From contig MHOW01000006.1 of NCBI GenBank assembly GCA_001820215.1, positions 47,039-111,038 on the forward strand: a DNA stretch of 64,000 nt, in the 5' to 3' direction. The notes beneath the pieces are model-generated. The model was not told the origin of the DNA. It ran no database searches and saw only the letters and a list, made by a program, of their open reading frames with translations. A program made the position numbers and the translations under genes. The DNA is from Candidatus Staskawiczbacteria bacterium RIFCSPLOWO2_01_FULL_33_13. GTDB taxonomy: Bacteria; Patescibacteriota; Minisyncoccia; Minisyncoccales; Staskawiczbacteraceae. Shown here one piece after another: positions 19,344 through 59,768 of the stretch (positions are counted from its first letter, which is position 1; every line of letters starts with the position of its first letter).

Positions 19344-19434
19344 TGTATACTAAAACAAAGTTTATATCAAGTATTCGCCGCAAAACAAAACTCTCTTTTT
19401 GTGATCCATTTTCTATATGCTTTTTATTGTCGAC

Positions 19435-19611
19435 TTTGAATTACGAAATGCTTTCTAGGCCTGCCTGCCGGCAAGCAGGCATTTTTTTCAAATTTGGAGG
19501 TGAAAATTTGATAGAATTATTTTACCTAGTAAACTAGGTAAAATAATTATTGCGAATTTTTAACCCAAATTTGGATAAAAGACCTGAAATATGCTTTTAT
19601 TGTGCATTTCG
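19435..19611. repeat. MITE family 1, long copy with nested GC hairpin
   Basis: Terminal repeats tttgaattacgaaatgc / gcatttcgtaattcaaag. Internal hairpin tacctagtaaactaggta. Extra GC hairpin gcctgcctgccggcaagcaggc followed by T7. Confidence 0.6.
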
Positions 19612-19637
19612 TAATTCAAAGCTATCGACAATATATT

Positions 19638-22718: not shown

Positions 22719-23288
22719 TCAAACTTTTCCTAAACTTTTTAAAGCAATTTTTATCCTTTCTTCCACATTTTTTATATTAGGGGGAACGCTTCTTAAAGCT
22801 TCTTGTGCCTGCTGGCTTGAAAAACCAAGTTGAGTTAAGGCACTTTCTGCATCATCTTTTGGTTTTTTAGATTTCAAACTACTAAGCATTTTAATTTTCC
22901 CTGTGAGTTCTAAAATAATCGTCATCGCTTTTTTTGCGCCAATTCCAGGAATACCTTCAAATATTTTTTCATCTTGGGACAAAATCCTGTCTTTTATTTT
23001 TTCTAATGAACCAAGCGCCGCAATATCTAAAGCGGATTTAGGCCCAACGCCCCTAATATCCATTAATAATTCAAAAAAATCAAGCTCATCATAAGTTAAA
23101 AAGCCATACAGATCTGATGCCTCTTCTTTGACATTGTGAAAACAAAATAGTTTGATATTGTCTGTTTTTTCTGCTACTTTTAATAAAGTTTGGCTGGATA
23201 AAAAAACCTTATAGCCGATTCCGCCCACTTGAACAATAACAAACTTATCTTTTTTTAAAATAATATTGCCTTCTAAATAGCTTATCAT
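22719..23288 (-). CDS. ruvA: Holliday junction branch migration protein RuvA
   Basis: N-terminus MISYLEGNI...VGGIGYKV. HhH region GIGAKKA. Confidence 0.85.
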   Translation of the reverse strand: MISYLEGNIILKKDKFVIVQVGGIGYKVFLSSQTLLKVAEKTDNIKLFCFHNVKEEASDLYGFLTYDELDFFELLMDIRGVGPKSALDIAALGSLEKIKDRILSQDEKIFEGIPGIGAKKAMTIILELTGKIKMLSSLKSKKPKDDAESALTQLGFSSQQAQEALRSVPPNIKNVEERIKIALKSLGKV

Positions 23289-23302
23289 TACTACATAATA
23301 AC

Positions 23303-23470
23303 CTTAAATTACAAAATGCTCAAATAAAAACGAGTTTCTGGTCTTTTATTCAAATTTTAGTCGAAAACTCGCAATAATTATTTTATGTAGTAAACTACAT
23401 AAAATAATTCTATCAAATTTTCAATATAAAATTTGAAAAAAATACCTAGAAAGCATTTTGTAATTCAAGG
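23303..23470. repeat. MITE family 1 copy, opposite orientation
   Basis: Terminal repeats cttaaattacaaaatgc / gcattttgtaattcaagg. Internal modules are the reverse complement of those in copies 19435 and 46602. Confidence 0.6.
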
Positions 23471-23477
23471 TAATAGC

Positions 23478-46380: not shown

Positions 46381-46776
46381 AATAATATATAATATATTAA
46401 ATATCTTATTGTTATTAGGGTAGTGATTTTTGTTAATTTTTAAATTTTTATTATATTGTCGTATGTGTAAATTTTTAAAAAATAAACTGTGAATAAAATA
46501 GTCTAAAAATATATTAATAAAATATGTGAATTATTTTTATAATTTTTTATAGATAGTTTGTTATGTGTTTTATCCACCATATATTCTATTTTTTTAATTA
46601 CTTTGAATTACGAAATGCTTTCTAGGTATTTTTTTCAAATTTTAGAATGAAAATTTGATAGAATTATTTTACCTAGTAAGCTAGGTAAAATAATTATAGC
46701 GGGTTTTCAACTAAAATTTGGAGAAAAGACCAGAAATTTGCTTTCCAAAGGGCATTTCGTAATTCAAAGTAATATT
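46381..46776. other. oriC-like AT-rich region with DnaA-box-like 9-mers
   Basis: Very AT-rich stretch 46381-46560. ttatccacc at 46570-46578 and ttatccact at 46777-46785. MITE copy embedded. Confidence 0.4.
46602..46769. repeat. MITE family 1 copy
   Basis: Terminal repeats tttgaattacgaaatgc / gcatttcgtaattcaaag. Internal hairpin tacctagtaagctaggta. Lacks the GC hairpin of copy 19435. Confidence 0.6.
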
Positions 46777-48132
46777 TTATCCACTATACACTTTTTGTTT
46801 TATAAGGTTTAATTCTTCTGTTAATTTATTATTTTCTTCACTTTCTTGTAGTATTTTTTTGTATGCGTATATGACTGTAGTATGATCCTTGCCCCCAAAT
46901 TTTCTTGCAATTGCAGGAAATGAATATTTTAATTCTTTTCTTAATAAAAACATTGCTATTTGTCTTGGTCTTACAATTTCTTTGCGTCTTGTTTGGTCAA
47001 AAAGATTTTTTTCATCTAAATTATAAAATTTAGCAACCGTTTCAATTATTTTTTTATAGTTTGCAACATCAAAGGGAGAAAATACAAAACCTCGTAATAG
47101 CTTTTTTGCAACTTCTAAATTCAACACATTGTTGTTGATTTTATGGTAAATTAATAAGCTATTTAAGGCTCCCTCTAAATCTCTGATATTCTTTTTAACA
47201 TTTGAGGCGATGTATTCTAAAATATCTTCTGGTAATTCCATATTTTTCTCTTGAAGTTTGGTTTTAAGTATTACAAGCCTTGTTTCATAATCAGGTAGGC
47301 TTACATCAATAGTCATCCCGCCTCCAAATCTTGATTTAAGCCTTTCTTCTAACTCTGATATGGCATTGGGGGGCCTGTCAGACGAAAGGATGATTTGTTT
47401 ATTTTTTTCATATAAAGAATTAAACACATGAAAAAATTCTTCTTGGCTTTTGTTTTTTCCCGATATAAATTGTATATCATCAATAATGAGCACATCTATA
47501 GGGGTAAAACTAGCCTTAAAGCTTTCCATGCTATTGCTCCTAATAGCTGAAACAATATTAGAAACAAGTTTTTCAGAAGGAATATATTTTACTTTATTTT
47601 TTTTATTATTACTGGCTATTTTATTCCCAATTGACTGCATTAAATGGGTTTTGCCTAATCCAACTCCTCCATATATAAATAAGGGGTTGTAGGTGTGTCC
47701 TGGGTTTTCAGATACTGCTAAAGCTGCCGCGTGAGCCAATTCATTAAATCCACCTACTACAAAATTTTCAAAGGTATAACGAGGGTTAAGATTTGTTTCT
47801 TTGTTAATTTTAAACTCATCAAATTTTAACTGTTCTATATTTATATCACTTTCTAGTTTTTCTTTTGTTTCAAAGTTTTTTGATGGTTGTGGGTTAATTT
47901 TAAATTCTAATTCTTTGATAGTGTTGTCTATGTCATGCATTGTTTTAAGTATTAACTTGTAATACTTATTATTCAGCCACTCTTTAGAAAAGGCATTTGG
48001 AACCGAAATTACTATTTTTCCATTTTCTTTAGATGTTATTTCAGTGTTTTGAAACCAGGTTGCAAAATTTGCCTTAGAAATAAAAAGTTGCATTTGCGCC
48101 AAAACTGATTGCCAAAGCTCACTATTGTCCAT
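46777..48132 (-). CDS. dnaA: chromosomal replication initiator DnaA
   Basis: AAA+ Walker A GGVGLGKTHL. C-terminal DnaA-box-binding domain. Confidence 0.9.
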   Translation of the reverse strand: MDNSELWQSVLAQMQLFISKANFATWFQNTEITSKENGKIVISVPNAFSKEWLNNKYYKLILKTMHDIDNTIKELEFKINPQPSKNFETKEKLESDINIEQLKFDEFKINKETNLNPRYTFENFVVGGFNELAHAAALAVSENPGHTYNPLFIYGGVGLGKTHLMQSIGNKIASNNKKNKVKYIPSEKLVSNIVSAIRSNSMESFKASFTPIDVLIIDDIQFISGKNKSQEEFFHVFNSLYEKNKQIILSSDRPPNAISELEERLKSRFGGGMTIDVSLPDYETRLVILKTKLQEKNMELPEDILEYIASNVKKNIRDLEGALNSLLIYHKINNNVLNLEVAKKLLRGFVFSPFDVANYKKIIETVAKFYNLDEKNLFDQTRRKEIVRPRQIAMFLLRKELKYSFPAIARKFGGKDHTTVIYAYKKILQESEENNKLTEELNLIKQKVYSG

Positions 48133-50284: not shown

Positions 50285-50322
50285 AAACTAAAAAACGGAT
50301 TTTTAAATCCGTTTTTTAGTTT
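50285..50322. terminator. bidirectional terminator hairpin
   Basis: aaactaaaaaacggatttttaaatccgttttttagttt. Confidence 0.6.
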
Positions 50323-50332
50323 AGGAAGATTT

Positions 50333-51952
50333 TTAATAAGTAGGAATAATATTTATCATGTATATGTACCTTTCTTTTTCTGGATCAAGGATATTATCAA
50401 ATATCAAGCTTATTTTCTTTTTACCGTAATAAATTTTACATTTTTTGTCATCAAGATTACGCCTAAATCTAGAATAAAGAACAATCATATAACTCCTTTT
50501 ATTTTCTACAAGCCCTATACTTCTTGCGCATGTTTTGTCGTTACTAGTACAGTGATTAAACTCTGGTGCATCAGAAGTAAATTGTGTTGAGGGTGGGTCC
50601 GTGCCTATTGGCGATGCTGTATGATCAACGCTCCATAGCCAATAATCAAGTATTCCCAATCTACTTCCATCGGGTGGACTATTCTCGCCATTTCTATGTG
50701 CCCAAAGTTCTCGATCTATAGTACTACTCGATAAAAAATATTTAAAATTTTTGCTTAAAAAGATAATTGCAGGGCTACTAGAAGGCGTTTGGTTTCTGTA
50801 GTGGAAAATGGTTCCATATTTAGGATTAAAATATCTATCATCAAAAGATGTAGATGTGCTTGGGGCTACGGACAAACATATGGTACCCTCGTCCCGTTTA
50901 ATTAGCGAAGGATTTGATGTTGCTAAATTCACTCCCCCTTGTAATTCCGAACACATACCACTTCCGTTTTGTAAAATAACTCCATAGCGGTCTTTTGGAT
51001 CGGCACCACTAATAATTTTTACTGATCGAGTTATGTTGGCAGTGGGAGTTTCATCGGAATCATAGGGTGGTATTAGGCCACTTTCTTTTTGTACATAAGA
51101 GCTTATTCCGGTGCAGTCCTCTGTTAAATAATAATAAATACCAGATTCTTTGATTTTTGATATATAAGAATATATTGTAGAAGAAGAATCATTTGGGCTG
51201 AATGGATCAAAAAGAAGCATTATGCTTGCTGGTTGAATATTATTTAAATCGGGGCTTGTACATGGTAATTCCCAAACTCTTAAATTGCCCAATCCAGATG
51301 CATTTCTTGTTCGGTCTATTTGAAAATATGGTTGATCATATACCCAAAGTAAAAGGGGTTTACCACCTCGACTTGAATCGCAAATATAAACAAGAGCATC
51401 AGTTCCAGGAGGCGCACCATCAAAAATATGACCCGGATCCAAATCAGCACCAGTATCCCAAATATCATCTTCTCGTTCGTTTGCTGCTTGATAATCAATT
51501 ATGGTAGTAACTATGGGTCCAGGCGTGCTAGTGCGAGTTCTATACCAAAGCTGTCCACCTTGACTTCCATAACTTGCCACGCTTGGGTTTATAAAATCTG
51601 GGCTTATTGTCTGAAATACTATCACGGAAATCATTAATAAAACTATTCCTAAAATACAGTCAAAAATCTTTTTTCTTGCATTTCCAATCGCAACCGGGCT
51701 TCCCATAGAAGCCATTATTAAAATGCTATTTATTACTATAGTTATGACACCAATTACACCAGCTGATACTACTAAAAACCAAAAGATATAACCAATATAT
51801 GTTTCTAAAGAAATTCCTACTCCATCTCCTATAGTTGGCCCACCCGGAATATTAGGGTAAGTTAATTCAAGGGCAAAAGCGTATTGGATTGCTAAAAAGC
51901 ACAGTATTATTATTGCAATGATGATAATTGGGTATTTGTATTTTTTGTTCAT
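50333..51952 (-). CDS. pilin-like (VirB2/TrbC-type two-TM N-terminus) protein fused to a large Pro/Ser/Thr/Gly-rich extracellular domain
   Basis: Signal/TM helix, then a second long TM (GYIFWFLVVSAGVIGVITIVINSILIMASMG). About 420-aa C-terminal domain whose DNA is visibly GC-richer than its surroundings. Confidence 0.4.
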   Translation of the reverse strand: MNKKYKYPIIIIAIIILCFLAIQYAFALELTYPNIPGGPTIGDGVGISLETYIGYIFWFLVVSAGVIGVITIVINSILIMASMGSPVAIGNARKKIFDCILGIVLLMISVIVFQTISPDFINPSVASYGSQGGQLWYRTRTSTPGPIVTTIIDYQAANEREDDIWDTGADLDPGHIFDGAPPGTDALVYICDSSRGGKPLLLWVYDQPYFQIDRTRNASGLGNLRVWELPCTSPDLNNIQPASIMLLFDPFSPNDSSSTIYSYISKIKESGIYYYLTEDCTGISSYVQKESGLIPPYDSDETPTANITRSVKIISGADPKDRYGVILQNGSGMCSELQGGVNLATSNPSLIKRDEGTICLSVAPSTSTSFDDRYFNPKYGTIFHYRNQTPSSSPAIIFLSKNFKYFLSSSTIDRELWAHRNGENSPPDGSRLGILDYWLWSVDHTASPIGTDPPSTQFTSDAPEFNHCTSNDKTCARSIGLVENKRSYMIVLYSRFRRNLDDKKCKIYYGKKKISLIFDNILDPEKERYIYMINIIPTY

Positions 51953-52030: not shown

Positions 52031-53824
52031 TTATTTTAATTTTCTTCTTGCTTCTTTTATTTTTTCAACTTCTTGGGGGCTGGTAGTTATTATTTGATCT
52101 TCTGTATAGCTGGCTTTTATATTAATATATACATGTTTTTTACCCGCAAAAAACAACCCTTCTCCAACAGGAGCACTTAATAATAATTCTTCTTCTTGCT
52201 TGGTTAAATCAAATATTTTTTCTAATACATCAATAGCCGCAGTGGATTGTTTTAACAGCATTTGCAAAGATGAATTGGTGATAATAGCCTTTCCATAACC
52301 TGAACCCATAAAATCTTCCACATCTTGGGTAATAGTGGTTACTCCCATCCAGTATTTTCTGCATCTTTTTATTAAGCTGAATAAAAATGAAGCTCCGTCT
52401 TCTGATTGCATCAGCCACCAAGCCTCATCAACCACTAAAATTCTCTTTTTTATTTTTGTTCTTACAATATTCCATATGTATCGCATTACAATAAACAAAG
52501 CAATGGGTTTTAAAGATTCTTCCATGTCTCTTATTCCAAATACAATGAATTTTTTATCAATAGTAATATTAGATTTTTGGTTAAAAAATCCAGCAAAAGT
52601 CCCTTCGGTAAATTTTTTAAGGCGTCTTGCTAAAGATTCTGCTCCTTCCATATTTTCTAAAATTTCTCCAAAATCAGACATTAGTGGTATTTTTTCCTCC
52701 CAGGTAGCAGGGTCACTTTGAGGTGTAATATCTCTTATTGCGTAAGTTTCTGTGAGGGCTTGGTCTAAAATACTATCTTCTTCAGCAGTTAATCCTCCAA
52801 GCATTATTCTTAAAAGTCCCACCAAATTTATAATATTTGACCTTAGTATGTCTTCTGGATTATCATCTGGGCCTGGGGTAGGAAGGTCAAAAGGATTTAC
52901 ATGGTTTCCAGAAGACAAAGATATTTTAAAGAAATTACCCCCTATGCCATCGGCTAAAAATTCATATTCATTTTCGGGGTCAATTACAATTACATCAATA
53001 TCCATCATCAAGTATCTTAAAATTTCTAATTTAACCGCGTATGATTTACCCGATCCGGATTTTGCAAAAACAACCATATTGGCGTTTTCTAAGGTGAACC
53101 TATCAAACAATACAAGTGAATTATTGTGCCGGTTAATGCCATATAAAATTCCTTCATTAGAGCTTAAGTCAAAAGAAACAAATGGAAACGCAGTTGAAAG
53201 CGGCTCTGTGTTCATTGGAACATTAATGCCAATTAAGTCCATTCCATAAGGGCTGGCTGAAATAAAGCCTTCTTTTTGCTTAAATAAAGCTGGTTTTATA
53301 TAAATTAAACGAGGTTCAAAAATTGACCTTAGGGTAGTTTCAACTTCACGCATTTCTTCTTCTGAATTTTGATATACGGTAATATAAAGCCCAAATCTAA
53401 ACATTTTTTCTTGGGCGGTTATTATTTTATCTCTAAGGTTTTCAATATCTTGGTAGCCGGTTTCAAGAGCTGGATCGCGAATGAGTCCCTTTTCTTGTCT
53501 TTCCATTAATTCTGAAGATACTTGGGTAACTTTTGACCGTAATTTTTTTAAAATTAATTCACTGCTTACCGGATGTATAAAAAAAGATATATCCATTGGT
53601 ACATTTAGGTTTATTGCGGGAGAAAGCCAGCCGGTATTTAAATATCTTGGATAAGAAAATATAAAAAAAGATTTGGCGATTTTTTCTCCAAGCTTTATAT
53701 AGTTTTGATTTATGCCAACATAAGAAGGCGCTATAACATCCTTTATATTAAGAATTTCTTCTTGAAATATTTTATCATCAATATCAATATTTCTTTTATT
53801 TTTATTTAAAAAATTAAAATTCAC
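52031..53824 (-). CDS. VirB4/TrbE/CagE-family conjugal-transfer-type ATPase
   Basis: Walker A FAKSGSGKSYA. DPENEY and VVDEAW (Walker B) motifs. Confidence 0.8.
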   Translation of the reverse strand: MNFNFLNKNKRNIDIDDKIFQEEILNIKDVIAPSYVGINQNYIKLGEKIAKSFFIFSYPRYLNTGWLSPAINLNVPMDISFFIHPVSSELILKKLRSKVTQVSSELMERQEKGLIRDPALETGYQDIENLRDKIITAQEKMFRFGLYITVYQNSEEEMREVETTLRSIFEPRLIYIKPALFKQKEGFISASPYGMDLIGINVPMNTEPLSTAFPFVSFDLSSNEGILYGINRHNNSLVLFDRFTLENANMVVFAKSGSGKSYAVKLEILRYLMMDIDVIVIDPENEYEFLADGIGGNFFKISLSSGNHVNPFDLPTPGPDDNPEDILRSNIINLVGLLRIMLGGLTAEEDSILDQALTETYAIRDITPQSDPATWEEKIPLMSDFGEILENMEGAESLARRLKKFTEGTFAGFFNQKSNITIDKKFIVFGIRDMEESLKPIALFIVMRYIWNIVRTKIKKRILVVDEAWWLMQSEDGASFLFSLIKRCRKYWMGVTTITQDVEDFMGSGYGKAIITNSSLQMLLKQSTAAIDVLEKIFDLTKQEEELLLSAPVGEGLFFAGKKHVYINIKASYTEDQIITTSPQEVEKIKEARRKLK

Positions 53825-53860
53825 TTTAGTATTTTTTTAATATTATTAAAAAATTAATTT

Positions 53861-53895
53861 CAAAATTCAAAAACCTAAATTCTAAACAAATTCAA
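53861..53895. repeat. left arm of 34-bp inverted repeat bracketing the four-helix-bundle ORF
   Basis: caaaattcaaaaacctaaattctaaacaaattcaa. Confidence 0.65.
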
Positions 53896-53931
53896 AATCC
53901 AAATTTTCTAAATCCAAAACTATTTAATATT

Positions 53932-54294
53932 TTATTTACTATTCTCTAAAATAGATCCAAATATTTTCATTAGTTCAATGCATTCTTTAATGAGCGATTC
54001 TTTGTCTTGTTGATTTTCTTTTAATGGTTCAGATAAATTTAACCACAACCTGCTTTCTTTAGATTCTTTTCTGCAAATCTTTATTCTCATTAGAAAGTCT
54101 TTTTTGCCTAGAGATTCATTTGCTTCAATATAATTGGCTGCCTGTGAACCGGAGGATCTAACGAGTTGTTTTCCGTATTCTATATTTGAAATTGTTCTGA
54201 GAAGAGCCTTAACATACTCTCTTGTTTTTTGAGCAAATAGATAAGTTCTATCTTCTAAATCATATTGCGGTTTTGAATTTTGGATTTCATTCAT
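53932..54294 (-). CDS. four-helix-bundle protein (23S rRNA intervening-sequence protein family)
   Basis: ...YLFAQKTREYVKALLRTISN...QLVRSSGSQAANYIEANESLGKKDFLMRIKICRKESKESRLWL matches the four-helix-bundle pattern. Confidence 0.6.
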   Translation of the reverse strand: MNEIQNSKPQYDLEDRTYLFAQKTREYVKALLRTISNIEYGKQLVRSSGSQAANYIEANESLGKKDFLMRIKICRKESKESRLWLNLSEPLKENQQDKESLIKECIELMKIFGSILENSK

Positions 54295-54328
54295 TTGAAT
54301 TTGTTTAGGATTTAGGTTTTTGAATTTT
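54295..54328. repeat. right arm of inverted repeat (33/34 match to the left arm)
   Basis: ttgaatttgtttaggatttaggtttttgaatttt. Its reverse complement equals the left arm with 1 mismatch. Confidence 0.65.
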
Positions 54329-54361
54329 GGATTTTTGTTGAAATAAATTTCAAATTAGGAT

Positions 54362-55024
54362 TTATTTCAATAATTCCGGTGATATTTTTGGCGAATAACC
54401 TATTTCAGCTTCGTTAGGGTGGTGTATAGTCCAAAATAGTTCAATTAATTCGGGGGTGGTTAAGGGTATTACATCTAAACCACATCTTTTTAATCCCATT
54501 GCTAAAAATTCCATTCTTTGCCAAAGTTGATTTTTTGATTTTTCAAAGTCATCATCTTTAAATTGTTGAATTTTAGCTTTATCTTTACTAAATAAATTCA
54601 AAAAATTAAATTGTTTTGTAACGCCCCCTACACCGAATATTTCCACTAAACTGTAAGGGACTACCACATAAAAATTCTTTGTCATAATTGAGTCCCCTTG
54701 CACCAATTCTTTTATGAATTCCCGATAAGAACCCGTTTGGGCTTTTAGTAATTCATTATCCTGTTTTTCTTCTAAATTTTTAATGCTATCCAAATATGGG
54801 GTGATATTTATCTTTCTTGATTGAATGATAATTTGGCATGAAAAATCTAATGAATTTAAAAAGCTTTGAAAAGAATAAATAATGGCGTTTTGTTCGTCGT
54901 CTGATTTTAATGCAAAATTCATAGAGGAAACCATTAGTACTCCCCTTATATTATTATTTTTTAAAATCAAAACACCTTCTTTAATGTCTTGAATTTCTAA
55001 AAATTCTTGTGTCGTAATGTTCAT
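54362..55024 (-). CDS. hypothetical protein in the T4SS-like cluster
   Basis: No TM, no clear motif. Confidence 0.3.
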   Translation of the reverse strand: MNITTQEFLEIQDIKEGVLILKNNNIRGVLMVSSMNFALKSDDEQNAIIYSFQSFLNSLDFSCQIIIQSRKINITPYLDSIKNLEEKQDNELLKAQTGSYREFIKELVQGDSIMTKNFYVVVPYSLVEIFGVGGVTKQFNFLNLFSKDKAKIQQFKDDDFEKSKNQLWQRMEFLAMGLKRCGLDVIPLTTPELIELFWTIHHPNEAEIGYSPKISPELLK

Positions 55025-59613: not shown

Positions 59614-59719
59614 TTTGAGTTACGAAATGCTCAAATAAAAAATGGGTTTCTGGTCTTTTATCCAAATTTTCAACCTAAAATTTGAAAAAAATACCTCGAA
59701 AGCATTTCGTAACTCAAAG
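59614..59719. repeat. MITE family 1 short copy
   Basis: Terminal repeats tttgagttacgaaatgc / gcatttcgtaactcaaag. Interior nearly identical to copy 23303. Confidence 0.6.
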
Positions 59720-59768
59720 TTATTCGAAAACTAGCGCAAATTAAGGAATTATATCACATGTTATTTAT

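Follow-up and report, generated by a model that had tools for sequence, protein, structure and literature searches.

A bimodular pilin-domain protein with a predicted surface domain, encoded in the type IV secretion operon of a Staskawiczbacteria genome

Which component of the Patescibacteria type IV secretion system (T4SS) makes contact with the host cell? Epibiotic growth requires this system in the only species in which this has been tested (PMC10633639); according to PMC12102498, it is encoded near dnaA and includes VirB2-like pilins, with no recognisable adhesins or VirB5-like proteins reported there. The locus considered here lies in a stretch of 64,000 nucleotides (hereinafter, the window) from Candidatus Staskawiczbacteria bacterium RIFCSPLOWO2_01_FULL_33_13 (contig MHOW01000006.1, positions 47,039 to 111,038), where a first-pass annotation, made by inspection of the letters, had placed a gene for a pilin-like protein at positions 50,333-51,952 of the window. 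The open reading frame (ORF) proved real: it lies on the minus strand and encodes a protein of 539 amino acids (aa), identical in sequence to KKP42906.1 / UniRef100_A0A1G2HT99. At least 23 public contigs carry the same protein, 100% identical, among them one from GCA_000989665.1 (Parcubacteria group bacterium GW2011_GWA2_33_14) and others assigned by label to Candidatus Staskawiczbacteria; it is annotated there as 'hypothetical' or 'uncharacterized', and no description of such a bimodular pilin protein was found in the literature searched. Here we argue, from sequence comparison and structural modelling, that this protein would be a bimodular T4SS pilin with a domain on display at the cell surface, probably acting as a minor or tip pilin in contact with the host, a reading to which we assign a probability of about 0.6. 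What is new is that a pilin hairpin is combined with a large domain that is variable and rich in disulfides; the secretion system itself is already known.

The N-terminus contains three hydrophobic segments, at residues 3-32, 51-90 and 93-122, the first of which resembles a signal peptide with AFA before L28. In the AlphaFold2 model, helices span residues 3-21, 49-81 and 86-116, with a predicted local distance difference test score (pLDDT) of 86-94 over the hairpin, and the AFA/LEL site, together with the downstream A27-E29-Y32-P33-G37 motif, is nearly invariant in the family. A signal peptide followed by a hairpin is the layout of VirB2-type pilins. The full-length protein gave nothing at E <= 0.1 against PF18895 (T4SS_pilin), and the N-terminal 131 residues taken alone scored 15.4 bits (E 0.02, residues 56-114 against positions 12-69 of the 71 in the profile). 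These 131 residues are, furthermore, 42% identical over 125 aa (E 2e-28) to P0099, a stand-alone protein of 137 aa that scores 30.9 bits on PF18895, above the Pfam threshold, and 66 of the 78 full-length relatives match PF18895 at E <= 0.01, the homologue in L015 with 30.7 bits. Hence, as judged from sequence, the N-terminus is clearly homologous to T4SS pilins despite its sub-threshold Pfam score. The VirB2/TrbC-type pilin of the first-pass annotation is thus upheld by the identity to P0099, the family matches to PF18895 and the modelled hairpin; as to its signal/TM helix and second long hydrophobic helix, a signal segment and a pilin-type hairpin are indeed predicted, but the hydrophobic segments are three, not two.

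The basic residues of the inter-helix loop (R93 K94 K95) fit a topology in which the hairpin loop is cytoplasmic and both ends face outward, as in VirB2. With the basic loop inside and the ends outside, the C-terminal domain of 420 residues would consequently lie outside the cell. It is this domain that makes the protein oversized for a bare pilin, the precursor of which has some 100-190 aa: the ORF encodes 414 aa beyond the hairpin.

Eight Cys residues of the C-terminal domain are invariant or nearly so (191, 231, 280, 334, 359, 468, 475 and 505), and 72 of the 78 relatives have an even Cys count in this part (8, 10, 12 or 14); both observations fit an extracytoplasmic, disulfide-bonded domain. 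The Cys pattern and the predicted topology point in the same direction, indicating that the domain is extracellular, as had been proposed at first sight. Apart from Cys, the residues that are invariant or nearly so in the C-domain of the aligned family are Gly, Pro, Tyr, Ile and two Ser; Asp, Glu and His are not among them. The conserved core comprises residues 201-210, 261-290, 311-330 and 531-539, and the variable loops residues 141-180, 231-260, 331-350, 361-370 and 421-470. Models of the full-length protein (pLDDT 78.9, predicted TM-score, pTM, 0.74) and of the C-terminal part alone (pLDDT 72.3, pTM 0.77) both contain a beta-rich C-domain. Pfam, NCBIfam and PHROGs yielded no family match for the C-domain (in PHROGs, none for the protein as a whole), profile searches of PDB sequences gave nothing at E <= 10, and Foldseek comparison of the model with PDB and BFVD (viral structures) gave no match at E <= 0.001. 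The structure prediction and homologue search that had been suggested for this part thus yielded a beta-rich model and a protein family of its own, but no known family or fold. An identity of part of the domain with beta/gamma-crystallins was considered and rejected: the best Foldseek match, 9d1v (beta-B2 crystallin), has E 0.06, probability 0.60 and a root-mean-square deviation of 16.7, Crystall_3 was matched in one of 20 family members (E 0.023), and hhalign of the family profile with human gammaD-crystallin, the sequence of which is possibly approximate, lent the weak signals, three in all, no support (probability 0.1%).

Word-indexed homologue searches found two proteins only; it was an exhaustive profile search over 1.84 billion cluster representatives that revealed the family, with 9724 matches at E <= 1e-3, 1124 at E <= 1e-10 and 74 at E <= 1e-30. 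The best 150 representatives were sorted with separate profiles for the N-module and the C-module, and 78 sequences were aligned. Both modules are present in 124 of these 150: 113 have the same N-C architecture as the protein in question (431-599 aa in the 78 aligned sequences), and in 11 the C-module is matched in two or three pieces, namely nine giants of 860-2057 aa, P0118 (650 aa) and P0105 (531 aa). The remainder are plain short pilins (12), proteins with two to four tandem pilin modules (12) and proteins with the C-module only (2). The hairpin is the most conserved part, with a median pairwise identity of 49% as compared to 27% for the C-domain, the variation of which is clustered in loops and insertion hot spots. 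All nine giants carry a large insert right after the residue equivalent to C359, and the insert of P0093, a giant relative encoded at the same gene position, contains SpaA_2 and SpaA_3 prealbumin-like adhesin-stalk domains. The faster divergence of the C-domain, the clustering of its variation in loops and the giants with adhesin-stalk inserts suggest a surface or host-facing role.

The taxonomic range of the family is poorly sampled by pattern scans of GTDB genomes: patterns derived from the alignment gave 599 matches with no true relative, and the degenerate pattern G[VI]Y[FY][YF]...[ND]CxG..[SA][ST] gave five stretches, two of which are true family members.

The pilin module, for its part, is a modular N-terminal unit that occurs alone, in tandem, on a lytic transglycosylase and on the C-domain described here, which changes the reading of 'VirB2 hits' in Patescibacteria genomes. 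The lytic transglycosylase case is P0081, a metagenome protein of 612 aa in which four pilin modules are fused to a VirB1-like SLT lytic transglycosylase; its label in one source, 'succinate dehydrogenase hydrophobic anchor subunit', looks like a mis-annotation. Tandem T4SS_pilin hairpins, two to four per polypeptide, were seen in P0081, P0048, P0083 and P0098. The fusion in P0081 brings up the possibility that the C-domain, too, is a membrane-anchored enzyme that degrades the cell wall or the host envelope. In S. epibionticum, moreover, the slot after virB4 is that of essential hydrolase genes (peptidase, lysozyme), according to PMC12102498. Since Pfam and Foldseek returned no hydrolase family or fold for the C-domain, and its conserved residues include none of Asp, Glu and His, we consider an enzymatic function highly improbable.

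The genomic context ties the protein to the secretion machine. Its gene lies directly downstream of virB4, at a distance of 78 bp, and a terminator-like hairpin separates its stop codon from the convergent stop of jag (R3H), so that it is the last gene of its operon (Table 1). Past the hairpin follow the convergent genes jag-yidC-rnpA and then dnaA and dnaN, with dnaA (46777-48132) some 2.2 kb away. A virB4 gene with adjacent TrsD-like and PrgI/VirB3-like genes near dnaA is the layout given for the MPF-FATA-derived T4SS in PMC12102498. The gene in question thus belongs to a chromosomal, origin-proximal T4SS operon of Patescibacteria (Paceibacteria). Seven other lineages, with proteins about 30% identical, have the gene in the same slot right behind virB4 as in the window; the 2057-aa giant is among them. 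Neither the operon nor the 64-kb window contains another pilin-domain ORF or a paralogue, and no recognisable VirB5, VirB8 or VirB9/10-like part was found in the operon with Pfam and NCBIfam.

The same context can be read in another way, which is the main rival of the pilin reading: the protein could be a static structural subunit, the hairpin of which anchors it beside VirB6, VirB3 and VirB4 and the C-domain of which forms an extracytoplasmic, wall-spanning cap or stalk of the channel. Such a subunit would stand in for VirB8-, VirB5- or VirB9/10-like parts and would neither polymerise nor adhere. It would be in keeping with a single-copy gene in strict synteny with virB4, with the conserved core of the C-domain, with the failure to detect a VirB8 or VirB5 homologue in the operon, and with the pilin module on the VirB1-like SLT protein P0081, which points to anchoring or targeting as a general role of this module. 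What makes us regard a static subunit as the less likely of the two readings is that the C-domain diverges far faster than the hairpin and that inserts of 400-1500 aa, adhesin-stalk domains among them, are tolerated in it; these properties would better suit an exposed display module.

Could the protein, then, be the major pilin, with the hairpins polymerising and the C-domains coating the surface of the filament? It is the only pilin-domain gene of the operon and of the window, and in solved conjugative pili (F-type) the termini of the pilin are at the outer surface. However, a domain of about 45 kDa on each subunit would be hard to fit to VirB2-type spacing, a homopolymer would be harder still to reconcile with the giants of 1400-2057 aa encoded at this position, and a short VirB2 match is present elsewhere in a near-identical genome. 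This match is KKP41924.1 of GCA_000989665.1, given in the supplementary table of PMC12102498; among the VirB2 entries for this genome in the available part of the table, the protein described here does not appear. A major pilin is, accordingly, a very unlikely role for it.

The origin of the C-terminal part is a separate matter. In the first-pass annotation it was taken for an adhesin or receptor-binding module, acquired horizontally and grafted onto a pilin, because the coding DNA looked richer in guanine and cytosine (GC). The rise in GC content is real, although it had been overstated: positions 50400-51600 have 37.6% GC, not 40-45%, and the window mean is 32.2%, not about 30% (standard deviation, SD, 3.0 in 1.2-kb windows). 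Only 4% of the 1.2-kb windows match this stretch in GC-richness, and GC is higher at 56.6-57.7 kb and 61.4-62.4 kb, both with 39-40%. The excess is located at the second codon position, where the GC fraction (GC2) of the C-part, 0.449, is the top value in the window (mean 0.305, SD 0.045), whereas at the third position (GC3) it is 0.235, as compared to a gene mean of 0.243 +/- 0.030. When the protein is recoded with the window's own codon usage, the expected GC content of the C-part is 37.22%; the observed one is 36.97%, a residual of -0.26 points where the SD across 54 genes is 1.0. The synonymous codon fractions of the C-part correlate with those of the window with r = 0.934, as compared to 0.878-0.906 for five control genes from the window, a correlation as high as that of housekeeping genes. 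Hence the combined check by sliding-window GC and codon usage found a GC content that is not uniform, but a codon usage that is that of the host genome.

The higher GC content stems from the amino-acid make-up, with much Ser, Pro, Thr, Asp, Tyr and Cys and little Lys and Glu. The description of the C-part as rich in Pro, Ser, Thr, Gly and Asp and as containing Cys holds true: Ser makes up 11.4%, Asp 8.1%, Pro 7.3%, Gly 6.9%, Thr 6.9% and Cys 1.9% of its residues, which is 1.2-2.4 times the values for the window proteome, Lys and Glu are below half of theirs, and Tyr and Trp are also enriched in the C-terminal 420 residues. As GC3, expected GC content and codon usage are all host-like, horizontal acquisition is unsupported; the shift in composition is an amino-acid effect with no sign of foreign origin, and transfer of the C-part was rejected on these three counts. 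A recent graft onto a resident pilin, for which the position of this stretch among the top 4% of windows would speak, is also contradicted by the family, since the fusion is kept in 124 of the 150 best representatives and is syntenic in eight lineages, and the two-module architecture is shared by a large family whose C-domains are about 27% identical. We thus find this explanation barely credible and take the protein to be a core part of the Patescibacteria T4SS that is inherited vertically. A more general lesson is that, where the genome is AT-rich, a local increase in GC can be wholly an amino-acid effect.

Under the reading that we favour, that of a pilin with a displayed domain, the next steps can be envisaged as follows. 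The Sec signal peptide would be cut after AFA27, and the VirB4/VirB3/VirB6 machine would treat the hairpin like that of a pilin and extract it from the membrane. The bulky C-domain would probably block the formation of a homopolymer, so that the protein might take part, as a minor, initiating or tip subunit, in a pilus of short pilins whose genes lie elsewhere, or else form a short surface stub. In either case the C-domain would be presented to the host cell or its envelope, and the protein would fill the role of VirB5 or of the surface adhesins of other T4SSs, none of which is recognisable in the operon. The tip adhesin for host-cell attachment that the first-pass annotation put forward as a possibility is still a reasonable hypothesis. 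More tentatively, and with odds that we would put somewhat below even, it could be the first VirB2-type pilin to carry its own receptor-binding domain, of a fold new to PDB, at the tip of a T4SS filament, where it would set host docking; the same gene position would have evolved to encode giant adhesins in relatives.

Several considerations weigh against the proposed function. We know of no VirB2-type pilin with a large globular domain, nor of a precedent for the polymerisation of such a protein or its placement at a tip. The PF18895 score of 15.4 bits falls under the Pfam gathering cut-off of 26.6, and the Foldseek match of the hairpin in PDB, to the conjugation pilus of Aeropyrum pernix (8dfu), is weak and not significant (E 5.2, probability 0.54, target TM-score 0.65, 77 columns). 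Adhesion is suggested by topology and variability only, because the C-domain lacks a detectable relative of known function. In P0081, where it is fused to SLT, the pilin module may be only a membrane anchor or a targeting module, and a pilus of the Staskawiczbacteria organism is itself putative.

How does the protein compare with known systems? It shares the signal peptide, the two-helix hairpin and the location in a T4SS cluster near virB4, TrsD and PrgI/VirB3, beside dnaA, with the PF18895 pilins of the Patescibacteria T4SS, such as SEML1_0014-0019 of Southlakia epibionticum (PMC10633639; PMC12102498). The S. epibionticum pilins, however, are 104-185 aa long, form an array and have no extra domain, whereas the gene described here is single-copy and encodes an additional C-terminal domain of 420 aa; the shortness of the former makes the latter a distinct variant. 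T4SS pilins are essential in S. epibionticum (PMC10633639), and T4SS-pilin-domain genes are among the top-expressed genes of unknown function in Paceibacterales that parasitise archaea (PMC10936435). The likeness to VirB5/TraC tip proteins lies in the proposed role, that of a minor subunit that sits at the tip of the pilus, initiates its assembly and touches the target cell, and in being T4SS-encoded, secreted and not an ATPase. Unlike VirB5/TraC, which are small, all-alpha and devoid of a pilin hairpin, the domain described here is rich in beta structure and forms one polypeptide with a pilin module, and no similarity to VirB5 was found with Pfam, NCBIfam or among the PDB fold matches. The design principle, a pilin module fused to a bulky adhesive module on display, recurs in PilB of Streptococcus sanguinis with its vWA module (PMC8179133); PilB, however, belongs to the type IV pilus system, in which PilD processes class III signal peptides, as opposed to the T4SS VirB2-type hairpin, and neither module is homologous. 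PrgB of the Gram-positive plasmid pCF10 and the SpaA-type sortase pilins likewise serve surface display for cell-cell contact, with a T4SS in a monoderm. Unlike these, the protein has no LPXTG or sortase signal, being anchored by the pilin hairpin, and it has no match to SpaA, PrgB or Ig-type domains.

If the proposed function is correct, this protein would supply the adhesin, or the counterpart of VirB5, that has been missing from a secretion system on which the epibiotic lifestyle depends. In any case, it is a specific candidate for the part of the Patescibacteria T4SS that contacts the host and, because the C-domain and the giant variants differ between lineages, suggests a handle for genome-based prediction of host range.

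Table 1. Features of the operon and of the bimodular pilin-domain protein, with positions in the window
Feature	Position	Strand	Remarks
First operon gene, 1169 aa	56091..59600	-	Tentatively VirB6-like, by position and topology only
Conserved operon protein, 183 aa	55510..56061	-	Soluble, acidic
PrgI/VirB3-like membrane protein, 148 aa	55041..55487	-	Weak Pfam match (23.1 bits; cut-off 27)
TrsD/TraC-like protein, 220 aa	54362..55024	-	VirB4 N-terminal domain as a separate gene; weaker match than that of VirB4
Inserted cassette	53856..54334	-	23S_rRNA_IVP four-helix-bundle gene (53932-54294) between 41-nt inverted repeats
VirB4-type ATPase, 597 aa	52031..53824	-	Without the VirB4 N-terminal domain; NF045971 CD1110-family, 356 bits (cut-off 325), E 3e-106
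Bimodular T4SS-pilin-domain protein, whole ORF, 539 aa	50333..51952	-	ATG start
Predicted Sec signal peptide, residues 1-27, MNKKYKYPIIIIAIIILCFLAIQYAFA	51872..51952	-	From hydropathy, model and conservation; cleavage predicted
Pilin hairpin, residues 49-116	51605..51808	-	Helices 49-81 and 86-116, short basic loop R93 K94 K95 between
C-terminal beta-rich domain, residues 126-539	50336..51577	-	Eight conserved Cys; from AlphaFold2 and alignment
Terminator-like hairpin, AAAAAACGGATTTAAAAATCCGTTTTTT	50290..50317		Between convergent stops of the bimodular pilin gene and jag (R3H); read directly from the sequence

As to the other features of the operon, the 1169-aa protein has about seven hydrophobic segments within residues 14-370, followed by a highly charged, Lys/Glu-rich tail of some 800 aa, and it had no match in Pfam, NCBIfam or PHROGs. 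GC content in the window peaks within its gene, at 56.6-57.7 kb, with up to 40%. The terminator-like hairpin, which looks like a bidirectional intrinsic terminator judging from its bases, is absent from the terminator-scan output. VirB4 is split between two genes (52031-53824 and 54362-55024), and this split is ancestral, because it is also seen in L001, L009 and the P0093 locus, all of which are devoid of an IVP cassette in between. In GCA_000989665.1 the ATPase gene is broken further, into parts of 376 and 202 aa, and it is probably for this reason that this genome was scored as lacking VirB4 in PMC12102498.

The cassette in the window is one of several. The operon relatives L001 and L002 have no IVP cassette, and others carry such cassettes at different positions; further examples (PF05635) were found in L009 (4570-5036), L010 (4-485, 912-1393 and 2061-2512) and L015 (5002-5486). 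Every IVP gene found in a T4SS operon is flanked by inverted repeats of 27-52 nt that are 73-93% complementary and whose arms stand 343-400 nt apart. The cassettes occupy different intergenic gaps in each genome, and the sequences of the arms vary while their complementarity stays. They resemble the 'intervening sequence' stem-loops of rRNA, landed in a protein operon, and may be both mobile and substrates of RNase III, which would cut the polycistronic mRNA. Since the 23S_rRNA_IVP gene of the operon is Avd-like, we also considered that the pilin gene could be the target of a diversity-generating retroelement, an idea that was rejected when no direct repeat of >=35 nt involving positions 50333-51952 was found in the 64-kb window.

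Inteins with a LAGLIDADG homing endonuclease interrupt VirB4 in L010 (2539-6333) and L015 (1158-4955), the products being 1264-1265 aa long, and in L015 a PDDEXK_3 nuclease gene lies directly upstream of the intein-bearing VirB4. The origin-proximal T4SS operon thus appears to attract selfish elements, inteins as well as IVP cassettes.

Finally, an intergenic element of 60-200 nt with the core TTGAATTACGAAATGCTTTCTAGG is repeated in the window at positions 721-785, 19422-19625, 23275-23474, 46586-46796 and 59663-59734. The copies show 62-91% identity or complementarity and occur in both orientations, one of them just upstream of the first T4SS gene and one in the dnaA-dnaN spacer; the element could have a common regulatory or promoter function or be a repeat similar to miniature inverted-repeat transposable elements.

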